Part shown: positions 12,868-40,185 of the stretch, one piece after another | Numbering within the stretch: position 1 is the first letter of the stretch | How the letters are laid out: every line of letters starts with the position of its first letter | DNA from: an uncultured Gammaproteobacteria bacterium | GTDB taxonomy: Bacteria > Pseudomonadota > Gammaproteobacteria > UBA9214 | DNA length: 64,000 nt | Direction of reading: 5' to 3' | NCBI GenBank assembly: GCA_963748215.1 | Contig: CAVVHS010000009.1 | Location: forward strand, 32,001 to 96,000 | Position numbers and translations under genes: made by a program | Notes under the pieces: model-generated | Databases searched by the model: none | Seen by the model: the letters and a program-made list of their open reading frames with translations, nothing else | What the model was told of the DNA's origin: nothing

Positions 12868-12915
12868 GTAGGGTGCGTTTTACGCACCAGGAACGGTGCA
12901 CGGAGTGCACCCTAC
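12868..12915. repeat. GTAG REP inverted doublet
   Basis: GTAGGGTGCGTTTTACGCACC-AGGAAC-GGTGCACGGAGTGCACCCTAC. Confidence 0.9.
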
Positions 12916-17926: not shown

Positions 17927-18760
17927 ATGAAACTTATGAAGCGATTGTTACTGGGTGTGCTATTCCCCCTGCTGGCCATGACGGCCCTGAGTGCGCGTGC
18001 CGAGGTGGTCGTGCTGGTGCACGGTTACCTGAGCGGTGCGGGCTACTGGGACGAGAGCGGGGTGACCACGGTGATGCAGCAGAACGGCTGGAAACGCGCC
18101 GGCGTCTACATCGCCGGACCGGGTGGTATGGGGTTTGTTCCCGCCCCTGGCATGCAGGCCGCGAACAAATTCTACGCCGTCGATCTGCCGTCCGAGGCGC
18201 CGGTGCTGGTGCAGGTTTACCAGCTGCACGAGATCCTGACTGCCATCGCGCAACGGCATGGACAGGAACCTGTCGTGCTGGTCGGCCATTCGGCCGGTGG
18301 TGTGGTTGCCCGCACCGCGCTGGTGCGTGGCGATAGCCATAACGTCAAGGCGCTGATCACCATCGCCAGCCCGCATCTCGGTACCTGGCGCGCCGAACAG
18401 GCGCTGGATGCGACCGACATCCCGTTCCCGTTTTCGCTGGTGACGGATTTCTTCGGTGGCGACCTCTACGACACGGCCATGCGCTCGCGCAGCCTGTACG
18501 TCGACCTGGTGCGTCCCTACCCGGGCAGCCTGCTGTTCTGGCTGAACAGCCAGCCGCACCCGGACATCAAGTATGTCTCGATTGTGCGGGCCGAGACCGA
18601 GGCGGGCTGGGGCGACTACGTGGTTCCGTCCTACAGTCAGGATATGAACAATGTGCCGGCCCTGCACGGCCGTTCCTCGCTGCTCACCATCCCGGCCAAC
18701 CACGGCCTGGCGCCGCAGGACGGTACACTCATCGTCAAGTTGCTGGCCGATCTCGGCTAG
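17927..18760 (+). CDS. exported lipase/esterase (alpha/beta hydrolase)
   Basis: Signal peptide, VHGY, GHSAGG and ITIASPHLG motifs. Confidence 0.88.
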   Translation: MKLMKRLLLGVLFPLLAMTALSARAEVVVLVHGYLSGAGYWDESGVTTVMQQNGWKRAGVYIAGPGGMGFVPAPGMQAANKFYAVDLPSEAPVLVQVYQLHEILTAIAQRHGQEPVVLVGHSAGGVVARTALVRGDSHNVKALITIASPHLGTWRAEQALDATDIPFPFSLVTDFFGGDLYDTAMRSRSLYVDLVRPYPGSLLFWLNSQPHPDIKYVSIVRAETEAGWGDYVVPSYSQDMNNVPALHGRSSLLTIPANHGLAPQDGTLIVKLLADLG

Positions 18761-23523: not shown

Positions 23524-25569
23524 ATGAGTGCTTCGCCTGAATACATGGCCAACGAGGTGCTGCGCACGCGCGTGGGTGTGATGACACACCTGGCGCCGCG
23601 TACGGCACTGGTCAGCATGGCGGAAATACAGGGGCTTGTCAGTGCAGCCTCCGATTGCCTGCAGGCAGGCGACACCCAGCTGGTAGTGGACCTGGGTTCG
23701 GTCCGGCTGCTCAACAGTGCGGCACTCGAGGCACTGGTGGACATCCAGGAACAGGCGGTGCGACTGGGTGGCTGGCTGAAGCTGGCGCATGCGAACAGCC
23801 TGATCAAGGACATTCTGCAACTCACTACCTTTTCAGACTTCATCACCCTGATGGACGCAGAGTTGCCGCCGTGGCAGCCCGCGGCAGGCCGTCCGAAACG
23901 TCTTGGTGACATCCTGCTGGCCCGCGGACTGCTGACTGAAGAGCGTATAGACGAGGCGCTCGAGCTGCAGAAGCGTAGCTCCCGGCGCATGGGGCAGATT
24001 ATTATCGACAAGGGCTGGGTGACCGAGCAGGACATGCTGAGTGCGCTGGGTGAACAACTGCAGGTTCCCTATGTGCGCCTGCGTGCCGGTATCTACGACC
24101 CGGAAATAATCGGTAGCATCGACAAGCGGGTTGCAAAGCGCCTGCAGGTGCTGCCGCTGCAAAGGCTGCGTCGTGTGCTCTATCTCGCCACCTCCGATCC
24201 ACAGGCCATGCCGGTGTTCGATGAAATCGAAAAACTCACCGGCTGCCGTGTCAGGCCGGTGATCGCCCGGCGTGAGGAGATTATCAACACCTTCAACGAT
24301 GCCTATGCGGGCAATGTCGATACCATTGAGCTGGTGGGCGATATCGATGAAGACTTTTCCATTGTCGAGAACATCGTCCGTGATGACTACGCCACCATCG
24401 ACGAAATGGCGGACGGCAGCCCGATCATCAACCTGGTCAACTCGCTGGTGCAGCGCGCGATCCGCGATGGTGCCAGTGACATCCATATCGAACCATCACG
24501 CCACAGGACACGAATACGCTGCCGTATCGACGGTGTGCTGTACGAGGTCACCACGCTCGGCGCCGAGTATCACCCGTCGATCGTATCGCGTCTCAAGGTG
24601 ATGGCGAATCTCGATATCGCCGAACGTCGCATGCCGCAGGACGGCCGCATCCAGGTTCACACGCAGGGGCGTGCGGTCGACCTGCGCTTCAGCTCGCTGC
24701 CCGGTCTGTTCGGTGAAAAGGTCGTGCTGCGGGTGCTGGACAAGAACCAGGCGCTGCTCGATGTGAACAAACTGGGTATGAGTGAGAATAATCTGAAAAC
24801 CTTCAAGTCGCTGCTGGACAGCAGCCATGGCCTCATCCTGGTAACCGGTCCGACCGGCAGCGGCAAGACCACCTCGCTGTACGCGGCGCTGAATTATCTC
24901 AACAGCATGGAAAAGAACATCGTGACCATCGAGGATCCGGTGGAATACCAGATCGAGATCGTCAACCAGAACGAAGTGCACGAACATATCGGCCTGACCT
25001 TCTCGACCATCCTCAGGCACACCCTGCGCCAGGATCCCGATATCGTCATGGTGGGCGAGATTCGCGATCGCGAGACCGCCGAGATTGCCGTGCAGGCCGC
25101 ACTGACCGGCCATCTCGTGCTGTCGACACTGCACACCAACCACGCCATCGGCGCGATTACGCGCATGATCGACATGGATGTGGAGCCCTATCTGCTGTCG
25201 TCCGCGCTGATCGGTGTGGTCGCGCAGCGCCTGGTGCGCACCATCTGCCCGGCCTGCAAGACCACTTATGTCGCCGGACCCGATCTCGTGAAGCAGTTCG
25301 GCTGGGAGGGTGAGCAGCAGGTGAAGCTGGCGCGCGGGCGCGGCTGCACGGAATGCTACGACTCCGGCTATCGCGGGCGCATGGGCATCCACGAGGTGCT
25401 CGACAGCGACGAGGCGTTGCAGCGCCTGATTACAGCCAACGCCAGCCGTGAGGAACTGACTGCCTACCTGAGGAAGCGCCACATCAGGACACTGTTCCAT
25501 GACGGAATGGACCATGTGCGCAGCGGGGAAACCACGATCGAGGAGGTTTCGCGTGTTATCAATATCTAG
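23524..25569 (+). CDS. GspE/PilB-family assembly ATPase with N-terminal STAS and MshEN domains
   Basis: VVDLGSVRLLNSAAL (STAS), RLGDILLARGLL...ALELQ (MshEN), GPTGSGKT, LRQDPD, CxxC pairs. Confidence 0.93.
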   Translation: MSASPEYMANEVLRTRVGVMTHLAPRTALVSMAEIQGLVSAASDCLQAGDTQLVVDLGSVRLLNSAALEALVDIQEQAVRLGGWLKLAHANSLIKDILQLTTFSDFITLMDAELPPWQPAAGRPKRLGDILLARGLLTEERIDEALELQKRSSRRMGQIIIDKGWVTEQDMLSALGEQLQVPYVRLRAGIYDPEIIGSIDKRVAKRLQVLPLQRLRRVLYLATSDPQAMPVFDEIEKLTGCRVRPVIARREEIINTFNDAYAGNVDTIELVGDIDEDFSIVENIVRDDYATIDEMADGSPIINLVNSLVQRAIRDGASDIHIEPSRHRTRIRCRIDGVLYEVTTLGAEYHPSIVSRLKVMANLDIAERRMPQDGRIQVHTQGRAVDLRFSSLPGLFGEKVVLRVLDKNQALLDVNKLGMSENNLKTFKSLLDSSHGLILVTGPTGSGKTTSLYAALNYLNSMEKNIVTIEDPVEYQIEIVNQNEVHEHIGLTFSTILRHTLRQDPDIVMVGEIRDRETAEIAVQAALTGHLVLSTLHTNHAIGAITRMIDMDVEPYLLSSALIGVVAQRLVRTICPACKTTYVAGPDLVKQFGWEGEQQVKLARGRGCTECYDSGYRGRMGIHEVLDSDEALQRLITANASREELTAYLRKRHIRTLFHDGMDHVRSGETTIEEVSRVINI

Positions 25570-25713: not shown

Positions 25714-26838
25714 ATGCCGCTTGAAGTTGCCGCCACGCGCCGGGTCGAGGCCGGCAAGGTACCCGCCAAATCCGCTCCCCGCGCAAGGCGCCACCGGCGT
25801 GTGAAGCCTGGCGTGCGCGAGCGTATGTTCTTTACCGAGCAGCTGTCGCTGCTGCTGGAAACCGGCACACCACTGCATGCCTCCCTGAAGGCGCTGGGCA
25901 AACAGGTCGAAAATCCGGCCATGGCGGACATTATCGCCGGCCTGCAGGAACACATCACCACCGGCAAGTCATTTTCCTGGGCGCTGGCGCAGTACCCCGA
26001 CCTGTTCCCGGGCACCTACGTGAAGCTGGTCAGCGCCGCGGAGGAAGGCGGATTTCTCGACACCGTGCTGCTGGAACTGATGAAGATGGACGAAAAGCGC
26101 GAGGAGCTGCGCAGTACCGTACTGTCGGCGCTGTCCTATCCGGGCTTCCTGATCGCGTTCTCGATCTTCGTGGTCATCTTCGTGCTGGTGGCGGTATTCC
26201 CGAAGTTCGCCACCATGTTTGCCAGCATTGCGGACAAGCTGCCGGTCACCACCATCGTGCTCATGCACGCGAGTCACATCCTGATCGACTACTGGATGCC
26301 GATCCTGGCTGCGATGGTCGGTACCATTGCCGGTGCCGTCTGGTGGCTACGGACGCCGGCCGGCAGTGCGGCGCTGGACAGTTTCAAGATGCGGGTATTC
26401 GGCCTGCGCGATATCTTCATCCAGATCTACCTGATCCAGTCCATGCGCGTGCTGGGCCTGTCACTGGCGAACGGCGTCAGCGTGCCGGATGCCCTGGTCT
26501 CCTGCCGCGAGGTGGTCTCGAACAGGGTATTCCAGCGGTTCCTGGTGGGTATCGAGGGCCGGGTCCGGGAGGGTGGCGGGTTCGCGGCGGCCTTCCAGCA
26601 AGAGGCCTTTATCCCCCCGCTGGTGCGCCAGATGGTGACGACCGGCGAGGAGACCGGCAATCTGCCCCGGGTGCTGAGCCGCGTCGCCGACTACTACGAA
26701 CGCGAGCTGCAGAAGAAACTCGCCGCCTTTTCGCGCATGGTGGAGCCGGTCATGCTGATCGTGATGGGCGCCGTCGTCGGACTGATCGTCAGCTCGCTGA
26801 TCCTGCCCATCTTCAAACTGTCGCAGGCGGTGCACTGA
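25714..26838 (+). CDS. GspF/PilC-family platform protein
   Basis: FTEQLSLLLETG, ALSYP, GEETGNL and VEPVML motifs. Confidence 0.93.
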   Translation: MPLEVAATRRVEAGKVPAKSAPRARRHRRVKPGVRERMFFTEQLSLLLETGTPLHASLKALGKQVENPAMADIIAGLQEHITTGKSFSWALAQYPDLFPGTYVKLVSAAEEGGFLDTVLLELMKMDEKREELRSTVLSALSYPGFLIAFSIFVVIFVLVAVFPKFATMFASIADKLPVTTIVLMHASHILIDYWMPILAAMVGTIAGAVWWLRTPAGSAALDSFKMRVFGLRDIFIQIYLIQSMRVLGLSLANGVSVPDALVSCREVVSNRVFQRFLVGIEGRVREGGGFAAAFQQEAFIPPLVRQMVTTGEETGNLPRVLSRVADYYERELQKKLAAFSRMVEPVMLIVMGAVVGLIVSSLILPIFKLSQAVH

Positions 26839-26847
26839 AGCGTGGAT

Positions 26848-27053
26848 GGTGCGTGGAACGCACCCTACAGTTTGCCACGGTGTGTCTGGCTGCGTAGGGT
26901 GCACTCCGTGCACCATGATCGTTACCCCAGCCGGTGCGTGAAACGCACCCTACGGATTATTGCGATGCCGCCTGATTGGGTAGGGGCACTCCGTGCACCA
27001 TGAATCCCCGCTCCTTGGCCGTTACGGCTGTTGGTGCGTAAAACGCACCCTAC
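26848..27053. repeat. GTAG REP cluster (5 units)
   Basis: Alternating GGTGCGTGGAACGCACCCTAC and GTAGGGTGCACTCCGTGCACC variants. Confidence 0.9.
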
Positions 27054-27094
27054 GAATGCTCAATAAAACAGTGCTGCGCGGTGCCTGGCCTACC

Positions 27095-27122
27095 CGTCAT
27101 TCCGGCGCAAGCCGGAATCCAG
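27095..27122 (+). repeat. single CGTC-type palindrome
   Basis: CGTCATTCCGGCGCAAGCCGGAATCCAG. Confidence 0.7.
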
Positions 27123-27124
27123 AC

Positions 27125-27832
27125 TCAGAACTTGCGTCGGCGTGCCACGCCAATCAAACCCAGCAGGCCGGAACCGAACAGCCAAACGGCGGCAGGGACG
27201 GGTACCGTTGTAATACTCAGCGTTGGCGCGTAATCGCCCGGATTACCTATTTGGGGATTACCAGACGATTCCTTGCTGCTGAATGCGTGGTTACTCGTTG
27301 AGACATTTGCTTGTGTGAGAATGAAGGTGATCAACCCATCGGTATCGTTGTTAATGAAGTCAACAAAAGTGCTGTTACTAAAACTAATGACATTATTACC
27401 TGTATAGCTGATCAAATCCGAGAATAACAGAGTCGTTGATGCGAGATCGATCGAATTTGTCAGTTTTCCTGGTGCGTTACTCCAGTCGATTGTGTCTTCT
27501 GACCAATTGGGTGAGACTGAATCATTCAGCCCATAGATATCTAACCCCAACGAACTAGTTGAGTTATAGCCAAAGAGCTCCAATGAAACCGCGGAAGCGG
27601 GATCTCCGATTGACTGAAAGGCCGTGATATCAAATCCAATGTATGAGTAGATGCTGTAATTGCCACTTGTGAAGGGTGCAAGTTGTGTAATTGCCCCTCC
27701 GAGCGGATCGGTAATGTTGTTGTGAATATTGGCATCATTATTCGTCTGGAAATCGATGGTGACGGCATTAGCGTCAAGTACATACGTGGCAAGACAAGCC
27801 AGCACAACGCCAGCAAGGCGTGATAGCATCAT
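27125..27832 (-). CDS. VPLPA-CTERM (PEP-CTERM-like) sorted surface protein with DNRLRE/CBM96-like domain; low GC
   Basis: Signal peptide; YIGFDI, WSEDTIDWSNAP, FSSKE...PTLSI; C-terminal VPVPAAVWLFGSGLLGLIGVARRRK. Confidence 0.85.
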   Translation of the reverse strand: MMLSRLAGVVLACLATYVLDANAVTIDFQTNNDANIHNNITDPLGGAITQLAPFTSGNYSIYSYIGFDITAFQSIGDPASAVSLELFGYNSTSSLGLDIYGLNDSVSPNWSEDTIDWSNAPGKLTNSIDLASTTLLFSDLISYTGNNVISFSNSTFVDFINNDTDGLITFILTQANVSTSNHAFSSKESSGNPQIGNPGDYAPTLSITTVPVPAAVWLFGSGLLGLIGVARRRKF

Positions 27833-27933
27833 GATGAATCCTCCGTAATCTTGTTTTTTATTGCCGGCCGTTATTTTTTGTAACCGGTTGCGCGCAGGGT
27901 ACACCCATCGACAGGGACCATCAAGCCTGTCCC

Positions 27934-28086
27934 GGTGCGTGGAACGCACCCTACGACACCCCGCGCTGTGTCTGACCGAGTAGGGTGCACTTTGTGCACC
28001 GTCATCGGTGCCCCTGTCGGTGCGTAGAACGCACCCTACGGATTATTGCAGCGCTGTCTGATTGGGTAGGGTGCATTCCATGCACC
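27934..28086. repeat. GTAG REP cluster (4 units) upstream of the RAYT
   Basis: Units at 27934, 27980, 28019 and 28066. Confidence 0.9.
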
Positions 28087-28131
28087 ATGATTGCTGCTCA
28101 CTAACACGAGGACTCATGGCAGGGCGCAATC

Positions 28132-28683
28132 ATGCCGAATTACCGGCGTACCATTGCTCCGGGCGGCACCTTCTTCTTCACGGTTGTCTCCTGGCGGCGC
28201 CGGCCCGTCCTGTGCAATTCTGACATTCGCGCCTCCCTGCGCGCAGCGCTCACGAGCGTCAGGTCAATACACCCTGTCACGGTCGAGGCCATGGTGCTGC
28301 TGCCGGACCATTTGCATTGTATCTGGACATTGCCTGAAGGGGACGCCGATTTCGCCGTGCGTTGGGCAATGATCAAGCGATTGGTAACGCATGATTGCGG
28401 CAGGCGTTACCCTGCATTCGCGAATATTTCCGCGTCCCGCAAGGCGCGGAAAGAGGGCGTTATCTGGCAGCGACGCTACTGGGAGCACCAGGTGCGTGAC
28501 CGGCTGGATCTGATCCGCTGCCTTGATTATCTGCACTGGAATCCGGTCAGGCACGGCTATGTCGGGGCTGTGATCGACTGGCCGTGGTCCAGTTTTCACC
28601 GCTACATGAGGCAGGGACATTACCCGGTGGATTGGGGCGGGCCAGGTGCGATTACCAGAGGAACGGAAGACTTCGGTGAATAG
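28132..28683 (+). CDS. rayT: REP-associated tyrosine transposase (RAYT, Y1 HUH)
   Basis: MPNYRR..PGGTFFFTV, PDHLHCIW (HUH), WQRRYWEH and YLHWNPV; flanked by REPs. Confidence 0.93.
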   Translation: MPNYRRTIAPGGTFFFTVVSWRRRPVLCNSDIRASLRAALTSVRSIHPVTVEAMVLLPDHLHCIWTLPEGDADFAVRWAMIKRLVTHDCGRRYPAFANISASRKARKEGVIWQRRYWEHQVRDRLDLIRCLDYLHWNPVRHGYVGAVIDWPWSSFHRYMRQGHYPVDWGGPGAITRGTEDFGE

Positions 28684-28693
28684 ACCGTGTCAT

Positions 28694-29152
28694 GGTGCGT
28701 AAAACGCACCCTACGGTGTCGCGGTGTATCTAACCGGGTAGGGTGCACTTCGTGCACCGTGATCGGTGCCCCTGTCGGTGCGTAAAACGCACCCTACGCC
28801 CATGGATCATCCCCGCTGCGTAGAACGCACCCTGCGGATTCTCGCATATTGGGTAGGGTGCACTCCGTGCACCGTGATCGGTGCCCCTGTCGGTGCGTAA
28901 AACGCACCCTACGCCCATGGATCATCCCCGCTGCGTTGAACATGCCCTGCGGATTCTGCTATTGGGTAGGGTGCACTCCGTGCACCGTGATCGGTGCCCC
29001 TGTCGGTGCGTGGAACGCACCCTACGCCCATGGATCATTCCCGCTGCGTGGAACGCTCCCTGCGGATTCTGCTATTGGGTAGGGTGCACTCCGTGCACCG
29101 TGAATCCCGCGCCATGCCCGGAGCCTGGATCGCTGCGTGGAGCGCGCCCTGC
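28694..29152. repeat. tandem REP (BIME-like) array with 113-115-bp period
   Basis: GTAG heads at 28738, 28853, 28966 and 29079. Confidence 0.9.
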
Positions 29153-29258
29153 ATCTAACCCACTAATATAAAAGTATTAATTCCGCCTGCCCGGGGCGCC
29201 GGGTAGCGCTGCAGCACCAGCCGGGAAAACACCCAACCCTGTTGATTCCCTCAAAAAG

Positions 29259-29285
29259 TAAAGCCCCCGTAAAAAAAGCCGATAA
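29259..29285 (+). promoter_or_regulatory. consensus sigma-28 promoter of the major pilin gene
   Basis: Exact TAAA-N15-GCCGATAA. Confidence 0.8.
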
Positions 29286-29328
29286 CCCGTTCGCAGTCTG
29301 AACAAATACCGGTTCTCAGGAGACAACC

Positions 29329-29913
29329 ATGACACGAATCAAACATCCAGCCGGCAAGGAAGCCGGTTTTACGCTGGTCGAACTGCTGATCGTCGCCATC
29401 ATCCTGGCCATCCTGGCCGCGATTGTGGTGCCGCAGTTCGCCTCTTCCACGGACGATGCCGAGGCCTCGGCCTTGCGCTCAAACCTGGCCGGTATCCGCA
29501 GCGCGATCGATCTGTATTACCAGCAGCATGGCAGCACCTTTCCGGGTGCGGTGGCCGCAACCGGCGGTACCTGTACCGGTGGTACGGCGGGCGCCGGCCT
29601 GATTGATACCGGGACTGCATTTGAAGAGCAGCTGAAATACTATTCCAACGCCGCGGGCCAGACCTGCAGTATCAGGGACGTACCGGCCGGCGGTGTCGTG
29701 GAATTCCCGTTCGGTCCGTACATCAAGGGTGATGTGCCGGCCAACCCGGTGACCGGTATCGCTACCATCGCCATCGAAACCACCGGCAACCTGGCCATGA
29801 CTGCCCCGGCCGCTACCTCGCAGGGCTGGCGCTACGACACTACCTCCGGCAAGTTCATCGCGGACGATTCGGTGGGTGTCGACTCGAACGGTACGGTCTT
29901 CGATACCTACTGA
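29329..29913 (+). CDS. probable major pilin/pseudopilin (GspG-like)
   Basis: AGGAG RBS; AG|FTLVELLIV; PFGPYI..PANP. Confidence 0.88.
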   Translation: MTRIKHPAGKEAGFTLVELLIVAIILAILAAIVVPQFASSTDDAEASALRSNLAGIRSAIDLYYQQHGSTFPGAVAATGGTCTGGTAGAGLIDTGTAFEEQLKYYSNAAGQTCSIRDVPAGGVVEFPFGPYIKGDVPANPVTGIATIAIETTGNLAMTAPAATSQGWRYDTTSGKFIADDSVGVDSNGTVFDTY

Positions 29914-29951
29914 TAACAAAACAGTGCTGACACCGGGACAGAGTCAGACTG

Positions 29952-30506
29952 ATGCGGGCGTTGCGTAGTCATGGCGTAACCCTTGTAGAACTCCTGGTGG
30001 TCGTCTCGATATTGGGGGTTGTCGCACTTGCGGCAATCCCCGATTTTCGTTCTGCAGACCCCCTGCGGCTGGACCTGGCGGCGCAGGAAATCGCGGAGGC
30101 GATTCGTTTTGCACGCAGCGAATCATTACGCACCGGCATGATCCACGGTGTCCAGATCAGCCAGGACACCCAGCGGGTGGTGGTCTACAGGGCGGACCTG
30201 ACGACGACACCGGTCGGCATGGTGTCCATCCTCTACCATCCGGTGGCGAAGCAGCCGTTCGACTTCGACGTGGCTGCGCGTCCGACCACCGCCGGTGTCA
30301 GCATCACCAATGCGCAGGATCCCTTTCTCTACGCAGCGGGACGGCGCAAGAACCTGCTGTTCGATGCGGCAGGCGTGCCGATCTGGATCGTTAATGCCAC
30401 AGCCACGACCTACGTATTGCAGGACGGGCTGGTTGAACTGGCTTACGGCAGTGGCAAGCGGGTTGTCCAGATTGCGCCGATTACCGGCCGGGTGACGGTG
30501 CAATGA
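29952..30506 (+). CDS. GspH/FimT-like minor pilin
   Basis: HG|VTLVELLVV; IRFARSES; ITGRV C-terminus. Confidence 0.85.
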   Translation: MRALRSHGVTLVELLVVVSILGVVALAAIPDFRSADPLRLDLAAQEIAEAIRFARSESLRTGMIHGVQISQDTQRVVVYRADLTTTPVGMVSILYHPVAKQPFDFDVAARPTTAGVSITNAQDPFLYAAGRRKNLLFDAAGVPIWIVNATATTYVLQDGLVELAYGSGKRVVQIAPITGRVTVQ

Positions 30507-30576
30507 CCGCGTCAATGCGCCTATCACTGTCAGCATGTTCCAAATGATTATTTGCCGAGTTTGCAAGGAGACCGCT

Positions 30577-30876
30577 ATGCACATACCTACAGTCCTGATG
30601 TGGAGTATCACCCTCTTGACCGCCGTGGTCGGCATGGTCTTTCTGTTCTTTCCGGACCGGATCGCGCGACTGGAGGCGTGGCTGAATGCGCCCTGGGGTA
30701 ACCGTGAAGTGGCCTCGCTGCGTTTCGGGCTGCCTGCAGAACAGACCATTGAACAGGTCCTGAACCGCAATATCCTGGCGACACCGCTGGTCTGGGACGG
30801 CTGGCTGCGGCGGCACCCGCGGCCGGTCGGAGCCGTGCTGTGCCTGGTGGCCGCATTGCTCTGGTGGCAGATGTAG
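30577..30876 (+). CDS. two-TM hypothetical membrane protein
   Basis: AAGGAG RBS; hydrophobic N- and C-terminal segments. Confidence 0.7.
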   Translation: MHIPTVLMWSITLLTAVVGMVFLFFPDRIARLEAWLNAPWGNREVASLRFGLPAEQTIEQVLNRNILATPLVWDGWLRRHPRPVGAVLCLVAALLWWQM

Positions 30877-30886
30877 TGCAACCGGT

Positions 30887-31711
30887 ATGCTGCGCGGGGT
30901 AACAGACAGGGTGCATGGAATACACCCTGCCCGGCGTACGGGTAGGGTGCACTTCGTGCACCATGACACGGTGCGTGAAACGTACCCTATGGATTCCACC
31001 TCTGCGGTGGGATCGTCGAGTAGGGTGCACTCCGTGCACCGTTGTATGGTGCGTGAAACGCACCCTATGGATTCCACCTCTGCGGTGGGATCGTCGGGTA
31101 GGGTGCACTCCGTGCCCCATTGCACGGTGCGTGAAACGCACCCTACACAATCTGCCACTGCGGTGGAATCTTCGGGTAGGGTGCACTCCGTGCACCGTTG
31201 TATGGTGCGTGAAACGCACCCTGCGGATTCTGCCTCTGCGGTGGGATCGTCGAGTAGGGTGCACTCCGTGCACCGTTGCGCACCGTGGATCAGGCGCATG
31301 GCCGGTCTGAGCTACATCGAGGTCCTGATCGCCACGGCCCTGATCGCCATCACCCTGGTACCGGCCATCGAGGCCCTGACGCCCGCCCTGCAGGGTGCGG
31401 CCATCCATGAATCAAGCACTGTCCAGCAGTTCCACCTGGCCGCCCGGCTGGAAGCGCTGCTGGCCGAACCGTTCGCGGCACTGGACGCGGAGGCCGTGGC
31501 CATCAACAACCCGAACGTGGCCAGCACCGTCTATTCGGATACGGTCGGCGCAACCAATCGCCGCCTGGTCTACCTGTCACGCTACGACGCCGACAATGCC
31601 GATGGCGACAATGACTTTTTCACCGGCACGGACGCGGGCCTGATCTGGATAAGGGTCGAACTCACAGGGACGGCGCGGGCCATCGAAGGCCTGACCAGTG
31701 CCTATGAATAG
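30887..31711 (+). CDS. GspI/PilV-like minor pilin with in-frame REP array in the leader (alternative start 31298)
   Basis: AG|LSYIEVLIA at 31307; frame open from ATG 30887 through the REPs. Confidence 0.75.
   Translation: MLRGVTDRVHGIHPARRTGRVHFVHHDTVRETYPMDSTSAVGSSSRVHSVHRCMVRETHPMDSTSAVGSSGRVHSVPHCTVRETHPTQSATAVESSGRVHSVHRCMVRETHPADSASAVGSSSRVHSVHRCAPWIRRMAGLSYIEVLIATALIAITLVPAIEALTPALQGAAIHESSTVQQFHLAARLEALLAEPFAALDAEAVAINNPNVASTVYSDTVGATNRRLVYLSRYDADNADGDNDFFTGTDAGLIWIRVELTGTARAIEGLTSAYE
30910..31274. repeat. REP array with 78-bp period
   Basis: GTAG heads at 30942, 31020, 31098, 31176 and 31254. Confidence 0.95.
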
Positions 31712-31722
31712 GACGGATCATC

Positions 31723-33336
31723 ATGCGGTGCGTGAAACGCACCCTACGGATTCGGGGCGCGGTGGGGAAACGTCGCGTAACACGGTGCGTGAACGCACCT
31801 ACCCATTCTGCATCCGCACTGGAATCGTTGGGCAGGGTGCACTCCGTGCACCATTGCGCGGTGCGTAAAACGCACCCTGCGGAATCTGCCGCCGCGCTGG
31901 AATCATCGGGTAGGGTGCACTCCGTGCACCATGGCGCGGTGCGTAAAACGCACCCTACGGATTCTGCCTCCGCGGTGGAATCATCAGGTAGGGTGCACTC
32001 CGTGCACCATGACGCGGTGCGTGAAACGCACCCTGCGGAGTCTGCCTCCGCGGTGGAATCATCGGGTAGGGTGCACTCCGTGCACCATGGCGCGGTGCGT
32101 AACACGCACCCTGCGGATTCTGCCTCCGCACCGGGATCGTCGGGTAGGGTGCACTCCGTGCACCATTGCACGGTGCGTGAAACGCACCCTACGGATTCTG
32201 CCTCTGCGCTGGAACCATCGGGTAGGGTGCACTCCGTGCCCCGTGACATGGTGCGTGAAACGCACCCTACGGATTCTGCCTCCGCGGTGGGATCGTCGCG
32301 TAGGGTGCACTCCGTGCACCATTTCCGGTGCGTAAAACGCACCCTACGACCCATGCACCACCGCGATCGTCAATCCGGCTTCACCCTGCTCGAGCTGCTG
32401 ATCGCCCTGGCGCTCAGCGCCATCCTGTTTGCCGGGCTCGGCGGCATCGTCGGCCAGGCCATGGATACGCAGGACGCCGTTGAGACCGGCAACGACCTCA
32501 CCCAACAGGCACGCTTCGCCATGGAGCAGATGGTGCGGATGGTCGGGCACACGCGCCTGCTGCTGCTGCCGATGGCGGACAAAACAGTCACCACATTCGT
32601 CGAGAACATCCGCGAGCAGACCATCCCGGCGTCAACGCCACCCACCGGCAGCATCTACGCCACCGCCGTGCTGGCGGTGACCCTGCCGGCCACTTCTGAT
32701 CTGGACGGCAACGGCATCCCCGATGCCGACAACGACGGCGACGGCCGGATCGACGAGGACCTGCCGGCCGATGTCGATAATGACGGCAAGCCCGGCATCC
32801 GCGGTATCGATGATGACGGCAACGGCGTCACCGATTATTTTCTTTCACCAGCAGCCGACGATGATGAAAGCGGAGATTTGGCCCAGAACGAGGATCGTAT
32901 CAACGGGCTGGATGACGACGGCGACGGCATCGTCGACGAAGACCCCGGGGCGGACAACAACGGCGATGGCTGTCCGGGGACCTGCGCGGTGGACGACGAC
33001 GCGGACGGCGCCCTGGACGAGGGGGCCGCGGCAGACGACGACGAGGACGGCGTCAGCGACGAGGACTGGTACGACCCGGTGGTGTTCTACCTGTCCGGTG
33101 GCAACCTGATGCAGCGCACGCCGGTGCCGTGGGATGAAAATGCCAGCGGGACAGTCACCGGACAGGATTACGTTGAACAGGTCATTGCCGAGCACGTCAC
33201 GCGCTTGCGGGTGGAACGCATTCCGCAGGGAGCCGGTCGCGCCCAGCTCGTCGATCTGACGCTGGTGCTGACAGATCCGCAGACGGGCGAGACGGTGAGT
33301 CTGAACACCCGTGTACGGGTCGGGGGTGCGTTGTGA
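31723..33336 (+). CDS. GspJ/PilW-like minor pilin with Asp-rich DxDxDG repeats and in-frame REP leader (alternative starts 31704 or 32353)
   Basis: SG|FTLLELLIA at 32380; DNDGDGRIDED-type repeats. Confidence 0.8.
   Translation: MRCVKRTLRIRGAVGKRRVTRCVNAPTHSASALESLGRVHSVHHCAVRKTHPAESAAALESSGRVHSVHHGAVRKTHPTDSASAVESSGRVHSVHHDAVRETHPAESASAVESSGRVHSVHHGAVRNTHPADSASAPGSSGRVHSVHHCTVRETHPTDSASALEPSGRVHSVPRDMVRETHPTDSASAVGSSRRVHSVHHFRCVKRTLRPMHHRDRQSGFTLLELLIALALSAILFAGLGGIVGQAMDTQDAVETGNDLTQQARFAMEQMVRMVGHTRLLLLPMADKTVTTFVENIREQTIPASTPPTGSIYATAVLAVTLPATSDLDGNGIPDADNDGDGRIDEDLPADVDNDGKPGIRGIDDDGNGVTDYFLSPAADDDESGDLAQNEDRINGLDDDGDGIVDEDPGADNNGDGCPGTCAVDDDADGALDEGAAADDDEDGVSDEDWYDPVVFYLSGGNLMQRTPVPWDENASGTVTGQDYVEQVIAEHVTRLRVERIPQGAGRAQLVDLTLVLTDPQTGETVSLNTRVRVGGAL
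31727..32347. repeat. REP array with 78-bp period
   Basis: Heads at 31832, 31910, 31988, 32066, 32144, 32222 and 32300. Confidence 0.95.
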
Positions 33337-36300
33337 GCCGTACGACGCCCATACATCGCACGGTGCGTGAAACGCACCCTACGCATTCTGCCGCTGCGGT
33401 GGAATCATCGGGTAGGGTGCACTCCGTGCACCATGGCCCGGTGCGTGAAACGCACCCTACGCATTCTGCCGCTGCGGTGGAATCATCGGGTAGGGTGCAC
33501 TCCGTGCACCATGACGCGGTGCGTAAAACGCACCCTACGGATCCTGCCGCTGCGGTGGAATCATCGGGTAGGGTGCACTCCGTGCACCATGACACGGTGC
33601 GTGAAACGCACCCTACGCATTCTGTCACTGCGGTGGAATCATCGGGTAGGGTGCACGCCGTGCACCGTTCCCGGTGCGTAAAACGCACCCTACGAACCCA
33701 GCGCGGCTTCATCCTGCTGCCGGTGGTGCTGGCCATCGTGCTCATCGCCACCATCGCCTTCCTGCTCAACAACCAGAGCGCCATCAATGTCGACAGCGCG
33801 GCGGGCGAGGCGCAGGCCCGGCAGGCGGACGCGATCGCCGCGGCCGGCCTGGCGCATGCCACCTGGGGTGCGCAGCACAGCGGCTGTGCCGGCGACATGG
33901 CCATGACGACAGTGCCGTTCGGCCAGGGCAGCTACGCCGCCACGGTGGATGCCGGTGGTGTGACAGCCACGCAGTACACCTTCACCCCGGACCGTGATGG
34001 CATCATCGAAGAGGGACACACCGATCACAACCATTCCGGCGACGACCTGATCAAGGTCAAGAATAAGCCGGGCGACACCATGCATGCGCTGTATCACTAT
34101 GACCTGTCGTCCATCCCGACCGACCGGAAGGTGGTGACGGCCACGGCCTGGTTTTACGTGGACACCGTGGATGACAAGGGCGCGGTGACAGTGCATCGGG
34201 TGACCGCCGACTGGACGGAGGCCGCTCTTACCTGGGACGCCGTCGGCGGTAAATTCGAGAGCCGGGTATACGGCAGCTTTCCGCCGCAGCCAGCAAAGGA
34301 CGTATGGGTGTCGGTCAACGTCACCGCGCTTGCCCAGAACTGGGTCAGTAACCCGGGCAGCAACTACGGCTTCCTGCTGAACGCGAGCTCCGACAATTTG
34401 GAGTCGAAATACACCAGCCGCGAGTACGGCACCGCCAGCCTGCGGCCCTACTTGGAGGTCACCACGGCCGACGCCGCGGTCTCGCCGGTAAATATCAGCG
34501 CTACCGGCACGCTCACCGGCAATCCCAGCCCGGCCAACGACATCTCACGTACCCTGACCCGAACAGCGGTACCGGCCTACCAGTCAGCTTCAAATCTTGT
34601 CCTGCAGCCCGACGCCGCAGCGGGCGAGGACGCGTATATCTGGCAGTGGGCAAAGAACAGCAACTACGGCACTGCCGATGAAACCTGGGTCGCTTCGACC
34701 CCGCCGGCAAACAACACGGCACTTGCCCTTTTCAGGTTTGATATGGCTGCGCTTCCGCCGGGCGCGAAGATCCTGGACGCCAGCCTGTCGTTGCATCACA
34801 GGGATGGCAACGACCCGGATGTGCCGGTGACGGCACACCGGATTACACGAGGCTGGGAAGAGGATTCTGTTACCTGGAACAACTACAAGACCGGTAACCC
34901 CTGGAGCACGGCCGGTGGCGATTTTGATGCGGCGGTAGTGGCGACCACGAACGTGGGTCCCGGCAATAATACCCGTTACGAGTGGGACATTACGAGCCTG
35001 GTGCAGGGCTGGATCAATGGCATTTATACGAATGAGGGTGTTGCGCTGCGTACAGTAGAACCGGGCATTTACGGCGAACGCTTTGATACCAGCGACCATG
35101 CCGACCCTGCCCGCCGCCCACGTCTGAGTATCACCTATGCCTGCGAATGCGGCAATCCCTGCCTGGCCCCGCAGGGCATGGGAACGGTGGCGATGGTGGT
35201 GATCAACCCGACGACGCTGGTCCCGGCGGATGCCTACAAGAAGGCACTGTTCGAATCCTGGGGCTACACGGTGAACGTCATCGGCGAGAATGCCAACGCG
35301 GCGGCCTACGATGACCGCTGCCGCCAGCAATGACGTCTTCTACATCTCGGAGACGGTCAATTCAAATCAGGTGGGCACCCGGATCAAGGACGTGCCCATC
35401 GGTGTGGTCAGCGAGGACGGGGATTACAACAGTCGGTCTCGGTCTTGCCACCGGCTCGGGGCACACCGCCGGGTCGGCGCTCAATGTCACCGACACCAGC
35501 CACTACATCACCGCCGTCTTCCCGGCCGGCCCGCTGGATATCTATTCGGCGGCCATGGAACAGCTCACGGTGTCGGGGACCGCGGCGCCGGGCCTGCAGA
35601 CACTGGCCGACACCGGCGGGGCCGGTTCGCTGGTGGTGCTGGCCAAGGGTGCAGGCATGGCCGGCGGCGGTACTGCCGCCGGCCGGCGCGTGATGCTGCC
35701 GCTGGGGCGCGTGGGCAAGTTCAACTGGGACTACCTCAACGGCAACGGCCGGCTGATCGTGCAGCGCGCGCTGCAGTGGGGCACGGGCAATACCGGTGCG
35801 CCACCGCAGAACCTGCTGCTGGTGGTCGTCAATCCGGGCAGTCTTACCGTGCAGGAAGCCGCCAAGAAAACATTGTTCGAATCCTGGGGTTATGCGGTCT
35901 CCCTGATCGACGAGGCCGACAGCCAGGCTGTGTTCGATACGGCGGTGGCCGCCAGTGACGTGGTGTATATCACCGAGGATGTCTCTTCGAGCACGGTTGG
36001 CACCAAGCTGGTCAGCGCACCGATCGGCGTGGTCACCGAGGAGGACAACCTGTCCGATGAATTCGGTCTCTCCGCCAGCATTGCCTGGGAGACTGGCACA
36101 CAGGTCGAGATTAACGACAACACGCACTACATCACCGCACCCTTCCCGACCGGCCTGCTGACTGTTATGACCAGTACCGAGTCACTGGCCTATGTAACCG
36201 GTGCCCTGTCACCCGATCTGGGAAAACTGGCGAGTTCCGCATCCGGGTTTGGGGTTGTGACACTCGAGGCCGGTGCCGCGACCTATACCGGCGGCAGCGC

Positions 36301-38233
36301 GGCCGGTCGACGCGTGCAACTGCCCTGGGGCGGTGACAATTTTAATCTCAGCCATCTCAATACCGACGGCAGGACCATTCTGCAGCGCGCCCTCGAGTGG
36401 GGTACCGGTGCCGGTGTTGCTGCCACGCAGACGATTCTGTTCGTGGTGCCGGATGCGACGGCACTCACAGCACAGGACGCAACGAAGAAGACGCTGATGG
36501 AATCCTGGGGATTCAGCGTGGCATTGATCACGGCTGCCGACACTCAGGCAAACTTCGATGCCGCCGTGGCCAGCGCGGATGTGGCCTATATCTCAGAAGA
36601 GGTCACTTCGAGTGTCGTTGGAACCAAGCTAAGGGATGCCACCATCGGCGTGGTGAGTGAGGAGACGGCCTTGACAGACGAGTTCGGGATAGCGGGTGTG
36701 CGGACCGGCTATACCGGGACTGACATCGAGGTCGTCAACACCACGCATTACATTACCTCGGTATTTGCCAGTGGGCCGCGGACCATTGCATCGTCAGCCA
36801 CGTCACTCAACCGGCTGACGGGATCGCTCGCGCCTGGCCTGGACGCGCTTGCGGAAACCACTGGAGATCCGGAACTGGCCACCCTTGAAACAGGTGGCCT
36901 GCTGTATGACAGTGGCACGGCCGCCGGGCGCCGCGTGCAGCTACCGTGGGGGGGTGACGCCTTCGACATCAACCTGTTGACTGCCGATGGCCAGACCCTG
37001 ATGCGGCGCGCCATCCAGTGGGGTGCGGGCGCGGGCGGCGTTGCCACCATGCCGATCGCGCACTGGAAATTCGACGAAGGCACCGGCCCGACCGCCTTTG
37101 ACTCCGTGGGCGGCAACGATGCCACCCTGAATGGCAACCCAGCCTGGACGACGGGCACGTTCGGTGACGCCCTCGACTTCGATGGGAGTGGCGACTACGT
37201 CACGACGGATAATAATTTCACCCCGCCACCAATTGGTACCGTCACGTTCTGGATGCAGGTGTCCGGCTCACCCGCCTCGCTCGGGCGCATTCTTGGTCTC
37301 CACGATACCTGGGAAATACGACACGTTACGACCGGCACGGCCGACGGTATACCCTATGGTCTGGTCTTCGACCTGGGCCTCAGTGGCGTCAACACTGAAT
37401 TCGTCACGACCACGACCATCGACACGCCCGGGCAGTGGTATCACATCGCCGCGTCGTACGACACGACCAACGATGCCTATGCCGTCTATATTGACGGTGT
37501 GCCGCACAAGAGCGGGACCTATCCGTCCACCTTGTCGGTACCGGCCGCTAATCCATTGTCACTTGGCACCCGCACCGGTTCGAGCAACTACTTCGATGGA
37601 ATACTGGATGACGTGCGCATCTACGACAAGTTCCTGTCTGCTGCAGAAATCGCTGACCTGGCAGCCGGCGGTGGTGGTGGCGGTGGTGGCGGTGGCAGTC
37701 CGACCATCGTCGAGGTGCGGGTCGCCACCGGTAATGACGATGCCGAGGAACGGGTCAGCAATGGTAATGTCAATCTCACCAGTTCCGACCTCGAACTCAT
37801 CGCGGATGGCGCCAATGCCCAGCTTGTTGGGATGCGCTTTACCGGTGTCGCCGTACCCAATGGTGCAACCATCACCAATGCCTGGATTCAGTTCCAGGTC
37901 GACGAGACCAACACGGGTGCGACGAACGTCAATATTCAGGGTGAAACGAGCGACAGTGCGCTGCAGTTTACAACGGTTAATTCCAACATTTCCTCACGCG
38001 GCAGGACCACGGCCTCGATCCCTTGGGCGCCAGTTTCCTGGACGACCGTGGGTGAGGCGGGCCCCGACCAGCAGACGCCGGATATCAGTGCGGCGATTCA
38101 GGAAATCGTCAGCCGTCCAGGCTGGGCCAGCGGCAATGACATGGTGATAATCCTCACCGGTAGCGGGGAACGCACGGCGGAGGCCTACAATGGCGACGCC
38201 GCGGGCGCACCGCTGCTGCACATCGAGTATTAG
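33333..38233 (+). CDS. giant GspK/PilX-like modular pilin/adhesin (about 1630 aa), interrupted by two +1 frameshifts near 35313 and 35432
   Basis: RG|FILLPVVL at 33708; two DNRLRE/CBM96-like domains; three ~200-aa repeats; LamG-like domain (AHWKFDE, WYHIAASYD, FDGILDDVRIY); repeat homology continues across ORFs 33333, 35290 and 35330. Confidence 0.75.
33362..33693. repeat. REP array with 78-bp period
   Basis: Heads at 33412, 33490, 33568 and 33646. Confidence 0.95.
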
Positions 38234-38649: not shown

Positions 38650-38916
38650 TCACTGGTTATGTAACTTTTCCTGCAGCCACACCTTGATCAGTGATTGATA
38701 GGGCACGTCGCGTGCATTTGCCGCGGCCTTGATCGAGTCCAGCAGATGCTGGGGGAGACGAAGGGAAATTGTTTTGGTCGTCGGCTTCAGATTGGGCATG
38801 ACAACCGATTGCGCCTTATCCCAGTCGAGATACTCAGAGGAATCGTGCTGTTCCCAGAATTTCCGTTCTTCGTCTTCGCTGGCGAATTTCGGTACGGATT
38901 TAAGTCGCTTTTTCAT
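38650..38916 (-). CDS. BrnA/CopG-like antitoxin
   Basis: PKFASEDEERKFWEQHDS and TISLRLP...PYQSLIK (ribbon-helix-helix). Confidence 0.88.
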   Translation of the reverse strand: MKKRLKSVPKFASEDEERKFWEQHDSSEYLDWDKAQSVVMPNLKPTTKTISLRLPQHLLDSIKAAANARDVPYQSLIKVWLQEKLHNQ

Positions 38917-39199
38917 AAATGTCACGCTCCTTTCGATGCATAGCCCTGGCCGAGATTACCCGGATCTTTTCCCCTTCATGGCGCACAGTGAACGTTATAT
39001 GCAGCAGCCGGGAGTCATCGGTTTTACCCAGAGCGTGGAAGCGCGGCTCCTGGTTGCTGTGTCCGGCATCGTCAAGCACCAGTAACGGGGCATTGAAGAA
39101 AACCTGTTCCGCTTCCGCCATGCAAACGCCGTGCTTCTCGTTTTTTCGGGTGTTTCCCTCGTCCCAGTCAAAGCCCGTGATCTTCGTCCAATCGATCAT
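38900..39199 (-). CDS. BrnT-family toxin
   Basis: FDWDEGN..KNEKHGV, EPRF and IRVISAR motifs. Confidence 0.92.
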   Translation of the reverse strand: MIDWTKITGFDWDEGNTRKNEKHGVCMAEAEQVFFNAPLLVLDDAGHSNQEPRFHALGKTDDSRLLHITFTVRHEGEKIRVISARAMHRKERDIYEKAT

Positions 39200-39253
39200 C
39201 GACGTATATTATCAACATATACATATTGGGGCAAGCCGCCAATGCGGCGGGGT

Positions 39254-40185
39254 GGGGTCGGACCTTTCTAATATACTGATAAGTAAACGGATAAGGCGAA
39301 AGATCGCCACTTTTCTCGGCTTAGAGCGTACTTTTCAGGCACTTTTAGGGCGAATAAGTGCTCGGTTCCTCCCGCAAGAATAATAAATCTGTTTCTCCCT
39401 CAATCCTCCGCCCCGGATGACAGCGCTTCAGTTCGCGCCCAATCGCATCCAGGTAGTCGCGCTGTCCCACGGCGATACTCATGGTCCACGCCGGGTCGCG
39501 CTCCAGATTGCCCTTCGCAAGCGCCAGTTCCACCCACGTGCGCAGTCCGTCGCGCAAACTGTCCGCATCGACAAAACCCAGTAATGCGGAAAGTGCTGCC
39601 ACATCGATGCAGCGATAGCGTTTCGGCAACGACTGAATTTCGTTGTATCCCGCATGCGCCCAGTCCGCAGGATGTTCGACTGCGCGCGCCCGGACCATGT
39701 TCAGGTCGATGTAGACCATACACCGCGCCAGATGCCCATCCGATTGCACGGCGGTTGCATGGTAGCGATCTTCCCAGTAGGCGCCTTTGCGGGACTTCCG
39801 GCGATTGAACTGTTGTGCCACCCGTCCGGCAATCAACTGCATGCTGCGCGCGATCTCTCCGTGCCCCCTGTCCTTGACCAGCAAATGGACATGGTTCGAC
39901 GTCACGACATAATTCAGCACGCACAGGTCAAAGCGCCTGCGTGCCTGATACAGCCAGTACACCCAGGCACGACGATCCTTCGCAAACTTGAGCAGGAACT
40001 GTTGTTTGTGACAGCGATGCGTGATGTGCCAGACATGACCTGGCAGAAAATACCGATGTGCACGGGGCATCGACTTCCTCCTTGAAGCTACGTTTTCGAG
40101 CCTGAAAACGACGTTTAAGGCCCATACCATAGCCAAATATGAACACTTATTGCTTGAGGATCAGTCTGATAAAGAGGTCCGACCC
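39254..40185 (-). mobile_element. Y1 HUH transposase element bounded by imperfect inverted ends
   Basis: GGGTCGGACCT at 39255 and its reverse complement at 40175-40185; second motif pair at 39320-39340 and 40100-40119. Confidence 0.65.
39345..40070 (-). CDS. Y1 (IS200/RAYT-superfamily) HUH transposase
   Basis: MPRAHR..PG..WHITHRC, SNHVHLLV, WEDRY and YIDLNMVRA motifs. Confidence 0.9.
   Translation of the reverse strand: MPRAHRYFLPGHVWHITHRCHKQQFLLKFAKDRRAWVYWLYQARRRFDLCVLNYVVTSNHVHLLVKDRGHGEIARSMQLIAGRVAQQFNRRKSRKGAYWEDRYHATAVQSDGHLARCMVYIDLNMVRARAVEHPADWAHAGYNEIQSLPKRYRCIDVAALSALLGFVDADSLRDGLRTWVELALAKGNLERDPAWTMSIAVGQRDYLDAIGRELKRCHPGRRIEGETDLLFLREEPSTYSP

Follow-up and report, generated by a model that had tools for sequence, protein, structure and literature searches.

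REP arrays within the predicted class III leaders of minor pilin genes in an uncultured gammaproteobacterium

Repetitive extragenic palindromic (REP) sequences are read in frame within the predicted leader of a minor pilin gene in a 64,000-nt stretch of DNA from an uncultured gammaproteobacterium of the UBA9214 lineage (assembly GCA_963748215.1, contig CAVVHS010000009.1, positions 32,001 to 96,000), the whole of which is referred to here as the window. The gene, which we call PilX/PilK-like, lies on the plus strand behind PilV- and PilW-like genes in a type IV filament cluster, and its GTG at 33333 opens a predicted class III leader of 125 codons (33333..33707; 375 nt, in frame) that ends at a G|F cleavage site and contains nine REP halves. 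Since no start codon stands downstream of the last REP and upstream of G|F, every product that is processed would bear residues encoded by REPs; if the gene is expressed and processed, the class III leader is therefore bound to include them. We lean towards the view that REPs are tolerated in this cleavable leader, having entered by in-frame insertion and expanded by tandem growth, with translation beginning at 33333 and the long leader being cut off at G|F.

The PilW–PilX junction and the predicted leader

The GTG at 33333-33335 overlaps the TGA stop of the PilW-like gene (33334-33336), and the start together with the preceding Shine–Dalgarno (SD)-like run occupies 33322..33335 on the plus strand, the two genes sharing 4 nt. 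A first-pass annotation of this DNA had recorded the overlap correctly and had concluded that the gene cannot start outside the repeat array. On the downstream side this conclusion holds, as there is no in-frame ATG, GTG or TTG from the end of the last REP (33693) to the F codon at 33708, the nearest alternative GTGs (33651 and 33660) fall inside a REP half (33646-33666), and near-cognate CTG, ATT, ATC, ATA or ACG codons are likewise absent in frame from after GTG 33660 to 33708. On the upstream side it went too far, for GTG 33333 itself is outside the array, 29 nt 5' of the first REP at 33362. Starts at the spacer ATGs at 33433, 33511 and 33589 were rejected because these lie in the other open frame, which is stopped at 33679-33681; no canonical slippery heptamer for a change of frame from these ATGs was seen by eye.

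Among the 17 in-frame GTGs, that at 33333 has the strongest anti-SD pairing (−9.9 kcal/mol). A scan of GTDB genomes returned at least 21 loci, ten of which have a readable PilW–PilX junction, the others lacking a PilX match or ending too early. Among the matches listed, the PilW stop of all ten readable loci has at offset −1 an ATG or GTG that shares its frame with G|F (p 1.7e-5 at one chance in three, with loci treated as independent), and in seven of the ten this is the sole in-frame start, leaders there ranging from 5 to 51 aa. The window keeps the offset −1 start in frame with G|F despite 339 extra nt (33355-33693), around which flanks of 22 and 14 nt amount to 12 codons, not far from the 9-aa median leader of motif-free homologs. 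By this comparison of sequences GTG 33333 is the orthologous start, and its translation is probably coupled to that of the PilW-like gene. Because the offset −1 start is conserved, in frame and best in SD pairing, the array is placed inside a 125-codon leader, and because the orthologous start overlaps the upstream stop, the PilW–PilX junction has no intergenic space.

The predicted leader is hydrophilic, with a top 15-residue hydropathy of 0.17 compared with 3.25 for the helix after G|F, and it ends in a Gly (33705) that is nearly invariant in the homolog alignment, class III leaders ending in Gly or Ala. The G|F site and the hydrophobic α1-N stretch together span 33705..33770 on the plus strand, with Pro rather than Glu at +5. 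Type IV prepilins have 20-25 mainly hydrophobic residues after the site that form a long helix, with which the hydropathy and the predicted structure agree here. In the AlphaFold2 model, there is no secondary structure before residue 128, where the predicted local distance difference test (pLDDT) score is mostly <50, and a helix follows at 128-182. Cleavage of the 125-aa leader at G|F by prepilin peptidase is predicted.

The mature part (33708..38233, plus strand) would be a modular minor pilin with two DNRLRE/CBM96 domains, repeats and LamG, its frame being interrupted by two +1 frameshifts. No Pfam or NCBIfam match to PilX_N/GspK was obtained for this protein, fold searches returned only generic helices, and fold and sequence searches of the PDB gave no pilin match, a result that says nothing against a pilin fold. 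The name PilX/PilK-like is a putative assignment drawn from the domain modules, the gene order, the Pro at +5, which is shared by 52 of 59 PilX-like homologs (Glu being present in 112 of 117 PilW-like ones), and slight database leads, namely that 13% of the members of the rank-3 Atlas cluster have PilX_N and that two homologs are named PilX by JGI.

Repeat family and recurrence in homologous leaders

The repeats consist of a GTAG tag beside a short imperfect palindrome that forms a hairpin, and they occur as inverted doublets and in multiple copies (66 halves in 11 clusters across the window), as GTAG-type REPs and REPINs do. Doublets fold beyond shuffles (z −4.4 to −5.7; for the terminal doublet z −4.4, 0/200 shuffles). 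A gene for a REP-associated tyrosine transposase (RAYT) at 28132..28683 on the plus strand (NF047646, E 1e-51, 174.6 bits against a cut-off of 80) is flanked by A and B halves of the array type at 27934-28086 and 28694-29152; mobilisation or cleavage of the REPs here by this RAYT is predicted. Elsewhere in the window, a single half at 1999-2019 provides, through its GTAG, the TAG stop of a hydrolase open reading frame (ORF; 1061-2002).

In the PilX-like gene, the array (33362..33693, plus strand) has nine GTAG-tagged A and B halves with a period of 78 nt, or 26 codons, and ends in a doublet (33646..33693, plus strand) of 48 nt, or 16 codons. Both lengths are multiples of three, so the start and G|F stay in frame. 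As the first-pass annotation had seen, the final A-to-B spacer is 6 nt (33667-33672), one shorter than the 7-nt spacer of each of the three units before it, and the last REP, whose final half is 33673-33693, reads RCVKRTLR just before TQRG|F, with the G codon at 33705. The 6-nt spacer also recurs, as stated there, in the PilW-like array (32321-32326), but in that gene an ATG (32353) follows the REP. That the short spacer is a sequencing error was considered and rejected, given that the same peptide occurs in P0001, P0178 and the non-pilin ORF P0194, and that the spacer is found again at 12889-12894, in a stand-alone doublet outside annotated genes (12868..12915, minus strand). As judged from these copies, the doublet is an ordinary 48-nt subtype and no bespoke switch.

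Similar arrays precede the G|F or G|L site in both upstream neighbors, so that the ORFs at 30887, 31723 and 33333 hold 9, 15 and 9 halves, respectively, all co-oriented and read mainly in the same frame; within the window, the 29-nt linker is confined to these three arrays. The PilV/PilI-like gene (30887..31711, plus strand) carries its array at 30942-31274, upstream of G|L (31307), and its candidate starts at 30887 and 31298 would give leaders of 140 and 3 aa; its array ends without the 6-nt-spacer doublet. The PilW/PilJ-like gene (31723..33336, plus strand), which has an N_methyl Pfam match, carries its array at 31727-32347, ahead of the F codon at 32380, with candidate starts at 31723 (219-aa leader) and 32353 (9-aa leader). 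The post-array ATGs of the PilV- and PilW-like genes have weak SD pairing (−3.1 and +1.0, respectively). In the PilW-like array, degeneration is seen in the first unit (31704-31831), which has an altered linker, most of the A half gone and a B half short by two bases; with these two bases missing from short runs, ATG 31704, which overlaps the PilV-like stop and is the counterpart of the start in locus L005, is out of frame by one, and the in-frame ATG is that at 31723. Asp-rich DxDxDG repeats (32680-33080), highly conserved in homologs and putatively calcium-binding, form the core of the PilW-like protein.

How strongly REPs are enriched in prepilins within the window varies with the criterion chosen. 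Arrays are present in three of five prepilins and none of 38 other genes (p 0.0008). If at least one REP half within the longest ORF upstream of the domain is counted instead, the figures are three of five and two of 38 (p 0.0075), and for a REP with no downstream start they are one of five and none of 38 (p 0.12); the three arrays do not count as independent cases.

Leaders of homologous proteins were scanned with five REP-translation motifs. The PilW-like set comprised 117 sequences (120 of 1,449 matches listed, less three without a site), and the PilX-like set 59 (67 taken, less eight without a site, with the protein of the window and four weak or partial rows excluded). REP-type peptides are present in 24 of the 117 PilW-like leaders among the matches listed (0.42 expected from shuffles) and in seven of the 59 PilX-like leaders (0.085 expected; one of the seven, P0176, is probably false), and they are absent from the mature parts, which total 37,135 and 67,885 residues, respectively. 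In nine of the 24 REP-bearing PilW-like leaders, the last motif detected is separated from the G by residues that include no M, V or L, so that a downstream standard start is impossible there too. Five more PilX-like leaders hold other repeat-like peptides, which may belong to known repeat families. P0178 and P0001 have the same terminal doublet peptide as the window gene, P0034, P0048, P0033, P0031 and P0032 form a series with shared native ends and leaders of 36-90 aa, and the long intact homologs P0122, P0146 and P0147 have REP-type leaders. On a 118-row FastTree tree, the trait requires 17 changes (shuffled mean 23; 0/500 as low), and on the quick tree, 13 changes are forced by starred branches; with fewer changes than in shuffles, the trait is clustered yet has been repeatedly gained or lost.

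Leaders and mature parts do not always agree. P0058 and P0043 are 93% identical with unrelated leaders, and P0058 and P0074 share a leader tail at 70%. P0178 is a mosaic, 92-100% identical to the window over the first 80 compared residues and then 22-67%, with divergence after about 98 residues. As alignments, these cases suggest recombination in this cluster. At the DNA level, L003:10964-11116 has a GTC-type palindrome in frame between the coupled start and the G|Y of a PilX-like gene (z −4.3), which resembles repeats at L003:1-198 and 18316-18429 and differs from the REP of the window, and possible decayed REP halves are found in PilW- and PilV-like leaders at L001:164-232 and L002:9416-9491, where folding is not above shuffles (z 0.6 and 0.8). 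A REP-only search of 1.84 billion representatives gave six matches (the window's own protein, a single short repeat ORF and repeats that seem to be unrelated), and with so few it is uninformative on a preference of REP peptides for pilins. Overall, the homologous sequences suggest that leaders are tolerated landing sites rather than signals requiring the repeat.

Proposed mechanism and competing explanations

According to the mechanism that we favor, REPs spread by the neighboring RAYT would have entered a native leader of ~36 nt and grown there by tandem duplication, only frame-preserving and stop-free configurations persisting. Ribosomes would re-initiate at GTG 33333, and the resulting leader, hydrophilic and 125 aa long, would remain in the cytoplasm and be removed by prepilin peptidase at G|F with no change to the mature pilin. 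The basic patch beside the helix would be the forced reading of the doublet, which fits the positive-inside rule and is possibly helpful. The same process would have recurred across the family, with more than one repeat family involved.

Several observations weigh against this mechanism. The GTG 33333 region is mostly paired in the predicted fold (0.19 unpaired), and an ATG follows the repeat in both upstream genes and in L003. The PilV-to-PilW junction is not always coupled, as L006 has 178 nt from stop to start. The frame match of this one gene is roughly a one-in-three event, with two of the three plus-strand frames open in all three arrays; this being the default state, the openness of the array tells nothing, and stop avoidance (0 of 13 units with a stop, compared with 0.77 expected from the observed unit variation) has no power. 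The REP family of the window does not occur as an array in the first 15 GTDB loci, homolog leaders are gene-caller starts taken without DNA context, and the leader counts are set against shuffles and mature parts rather than the N-termini of non-pilin proteins of these organisms. According to the accessible portion of PMC3733652, REPs at N-termini are often extragenic copies that have been mis-annotated, and known long leaders reach about 30 aa at most and, in the accessible accounts of them, are not described as repeat-derived, compared with the 125 aa predicted here. Finally, two single-base +1 frameshifts near 35311 and 35436, 125 nt apart, break the reading frame, which indicates either a pseudogene or a local assembly error.

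The most probable of the rival explanations, though unlikely in our view, is that the gene is dead, the array having built up in a tip-pilin gene that is not made or having inactivated it, and the frame match being due to chance. Homologs are continuous where the frameshifts lie, intact proteins of 1,000-1,600 aa aligning across three successive frames of the gene; the array would be open regardless of translation, and the PilW-like ATG 31704, at the offset of the L005 start, is out of frame by one. The 41 residues between the frameshifts are 95% identical to P0127 (window 35290-35440). However, identity to P0121 is 69% and 72% on either side, the 930-aa downstream part is stop-free, and no frame break was found in other genes of the cluster relative to six loci. 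The unbroken frames of the other genes and the lack of decay to either side would favor an error of local assembly or an event that happened very recently, and two insertions 125 nt apart would resemble a local consensus error. A codon hidden Markov model recovered positions 35318 and 35430, but its output is noisy, with 20 and 32 calls of which many fell on shadow frames or at the junctions of genes, and it gives no measure of the error rate. Were the product truncated at 666 aa, the pilin domain and the two DNRLRE domains would still be retained, and REP-type leaders are found in long intact homologs. Somewhat less probable is that translation begins within the array, where a REP would encode the ribosome site (GTG 33660, 33582, 33504 or 33426), giving a leader of 16 aa or another short length that is mostly REP. 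The GTG in each A half is preceded by an SD-like run (−7.0 kcal/mol), gene callers have chosen such starts (at 33582 for the window's own protein, P0171, and in P0001), and 16 aa is within the known range; yet these GTGs sit in the REP hairpin stem (0.23-0.33 unpaired), and the upstream GTG 33333 surpasses them in SD pairing and is both conserved and in frame.

The first-pass annotation had gone further and proposed that the terminal REP was co-opted to form the positively charged portion of the class III signal. If this is to mean that the REP is needed there, it is the least probable of the explanations weighed here, and the sequences do not support co-option for a function that is needed or under selection, possible as it is. 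The last 12 leader residues hold five K/R and have a net charge of +5, the maximum of 114 windows (median 0), which falls at the terminal doublet, and it is the doublet that supplies most of the positive charge beside the hydrophobic helix. The contribution of the repeat to the basic residues is nevertheless partial, with K−9 and R−8 fully REP-coded, R−12 REP-coded by two of three nucleotides, R−5 by one of three and R−2 not at all; the non-REP flanks carry the native Arg3 and Arg−2, the former displaced by >100 residues. In the ortholog P0178, where this doublet is followed by TQTG|F, the 25 annotated leader residues include no K/R outside the doublet-derived stretch, and P0173 has AQTG after another repeat-like basic peptide. 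Against a needed function, the 48-nt doublet has a single stop-free phase in this orientation, so that a peptide ending in RCVKRTLR is forced, and the doublet also stands alone outside genes at 12868-12915. Comparison with REP-free homologs, which the annotation had called for, goes the same way, given that 32 of 36 PilX-like and 42 of 45 PilW-like motif-free short leaders carry K/R of their own and that the net charge of the last 12 residues is not different between REP-bearing and motif-free leaders (PilX-like, 2.2 vs 1.5, p 0.20; PilW-like, 1.25 vs 1.6, p 0.26). A net charge of ≤0 occurs in none of six REP-bearing PilX-like leaders compared with nine of 53 motif-free ones, a difference that is not significant, and in six of 24 REP-bearing PilW-like leaders; in addition, the PilV-like array lacks the terminal doublet altogether. 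Only a little more probable, and still doubtful, is that the arrays have been domesticated as blocks for homology- or RAYT-cut-driven in-frame deletion, duplication and swapping of leaders or tip modules, leaving a scar of 125-219 aa that the peptidase would remove, with the repeat serving as the sole membrane-proximal positive charge in some orthologs. This fits the array-only 29-nt linker, the discordance between leaders and mature parts, and the P0178 mosaic.

Genomic setting and significance

The type IV filament cluster of the window includes a PilB-like ATPase, PilC, the major pilin, a FimT/GspH-like pilin and three further pilin-like genes, followed later by PilM and a secretin. The major pilin-like and FimT/GspH-like prepilin genes (29329..30506, plus strand) have ordinary short leaders and are array-free, offering an internal contrast. 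The PilB/GspE-like ATPase has an N-terminal STAS domain (23524-23850), which is kept in related loci. Between pilC and the major pilin gene (26848-29152) are a PEP-CTERM/CBM96 gene and the RAYT gene with its REPs, while in related loci pilC and the major pilin gene are adjacent. A 113-aa membrane-protein-like ORF (30535-30876) lies between the FimT-like and PilV-like genes, with no Pfam match and no tblastn match in loci L001-L015. Just 3' of the pilin genes (38650-40136) are a BrnT/CopG toxin–antitoxin pair and a second Y1 transposase, the latter scoring 68 bits with NF047646, below the cut-off. No prepilin peptidase was found among the 74 window ORFs scanned, nothing matched Rfam in 26800-34000, no sigma-70-like promoter was found in 29000-34000, and a plasmid search gave no match.

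In several respects, these genes resemble described systems. Palindromic repeats in frame within ORFs, as singles, dimers or clusters of 43-82 aa, some of them N-terminal, are described for intragenic GTAG/CGTC REPs and Rickettsia palindromic elements (RPEs), and proteins decorated with RPE-1 are reported as expressed (PMC3733652, PMC3184786, in their accessible portions). What differs here is a cleavable class III leader with ~110 aa REP-coded and a G|F position that excludes a downstream start; a search of four supplementary files of PMC3733652 gave no pilin, pilus, methylation or fimbrial entry. As in the tandem RAYT/REPIN clusters of PMC3116915, the RAYT is flanked by inverted GTAG REPs with hairpin doublets and near-identical tandem units, but the clusters in the accessible part of that paper are extragenic, whereas three arrays here lie within pilin ORFs. 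The PilX-like gene shares with the tip-capping PilK/PilX/GspK pilins and modular pilins covered by the accessible text of PMC10191384 a class III signal, the lack of Glu5 and the last place in a FimT-PilV-PilW-PilX-like run, and it differs in its large C-terminal DNRLRE/CBM96 and LamG modules, the lack of a Pfam PilX_N/GspK match and a far longer predicted leader. Class III leaders are variable in length, cytoplasmic and cleaved off, as that text has it. Long ones include 15-30 aa in type IVb pilins, 18 aa in Streptococcus sanguinis PilE and the 10- and 29-aa isoforms of Geobacter PilA, which come from alternative starts, and prepilin peptidase cleaves leaders of differing length (PMC4832360, PMC6201914, in the portions available). 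The leaders of the neighboring genes would be 140 and 219 aa if their upstream starts were used, compared with the ~30 aa known from these portions. No paper on REPs in prepilin leaders was found in a literature search that covered few subscription papers, and neither PMC12075869 nor bioRxiv 2020.03.09.984088 has a bearing on the question.

Intragenic REPs and RPEs, tandem REPINs and leaders of 15-30 aa are thus known, and the interesting part is the recurrent use of class III leaders by REPs; a new signal mechanism is not demonstrated by these leaders. In-frame N-terminal REPs are usually dismissed as annotation errors, a way out that the fixed G|F and the conserved overlapping start close off in this gene. 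The gene, if it is translated, would be a natural test of the leader length that prepilin peptidase and targeting by the signal recognition particle accept, at 125 aa compared with the ~30 aa of the accessible reports. Where operons are tightly coupled, cleavable leaders may offer selfish repeats a hiding place, and genes of this kind will escape pilin predictors that consider the first residues only.

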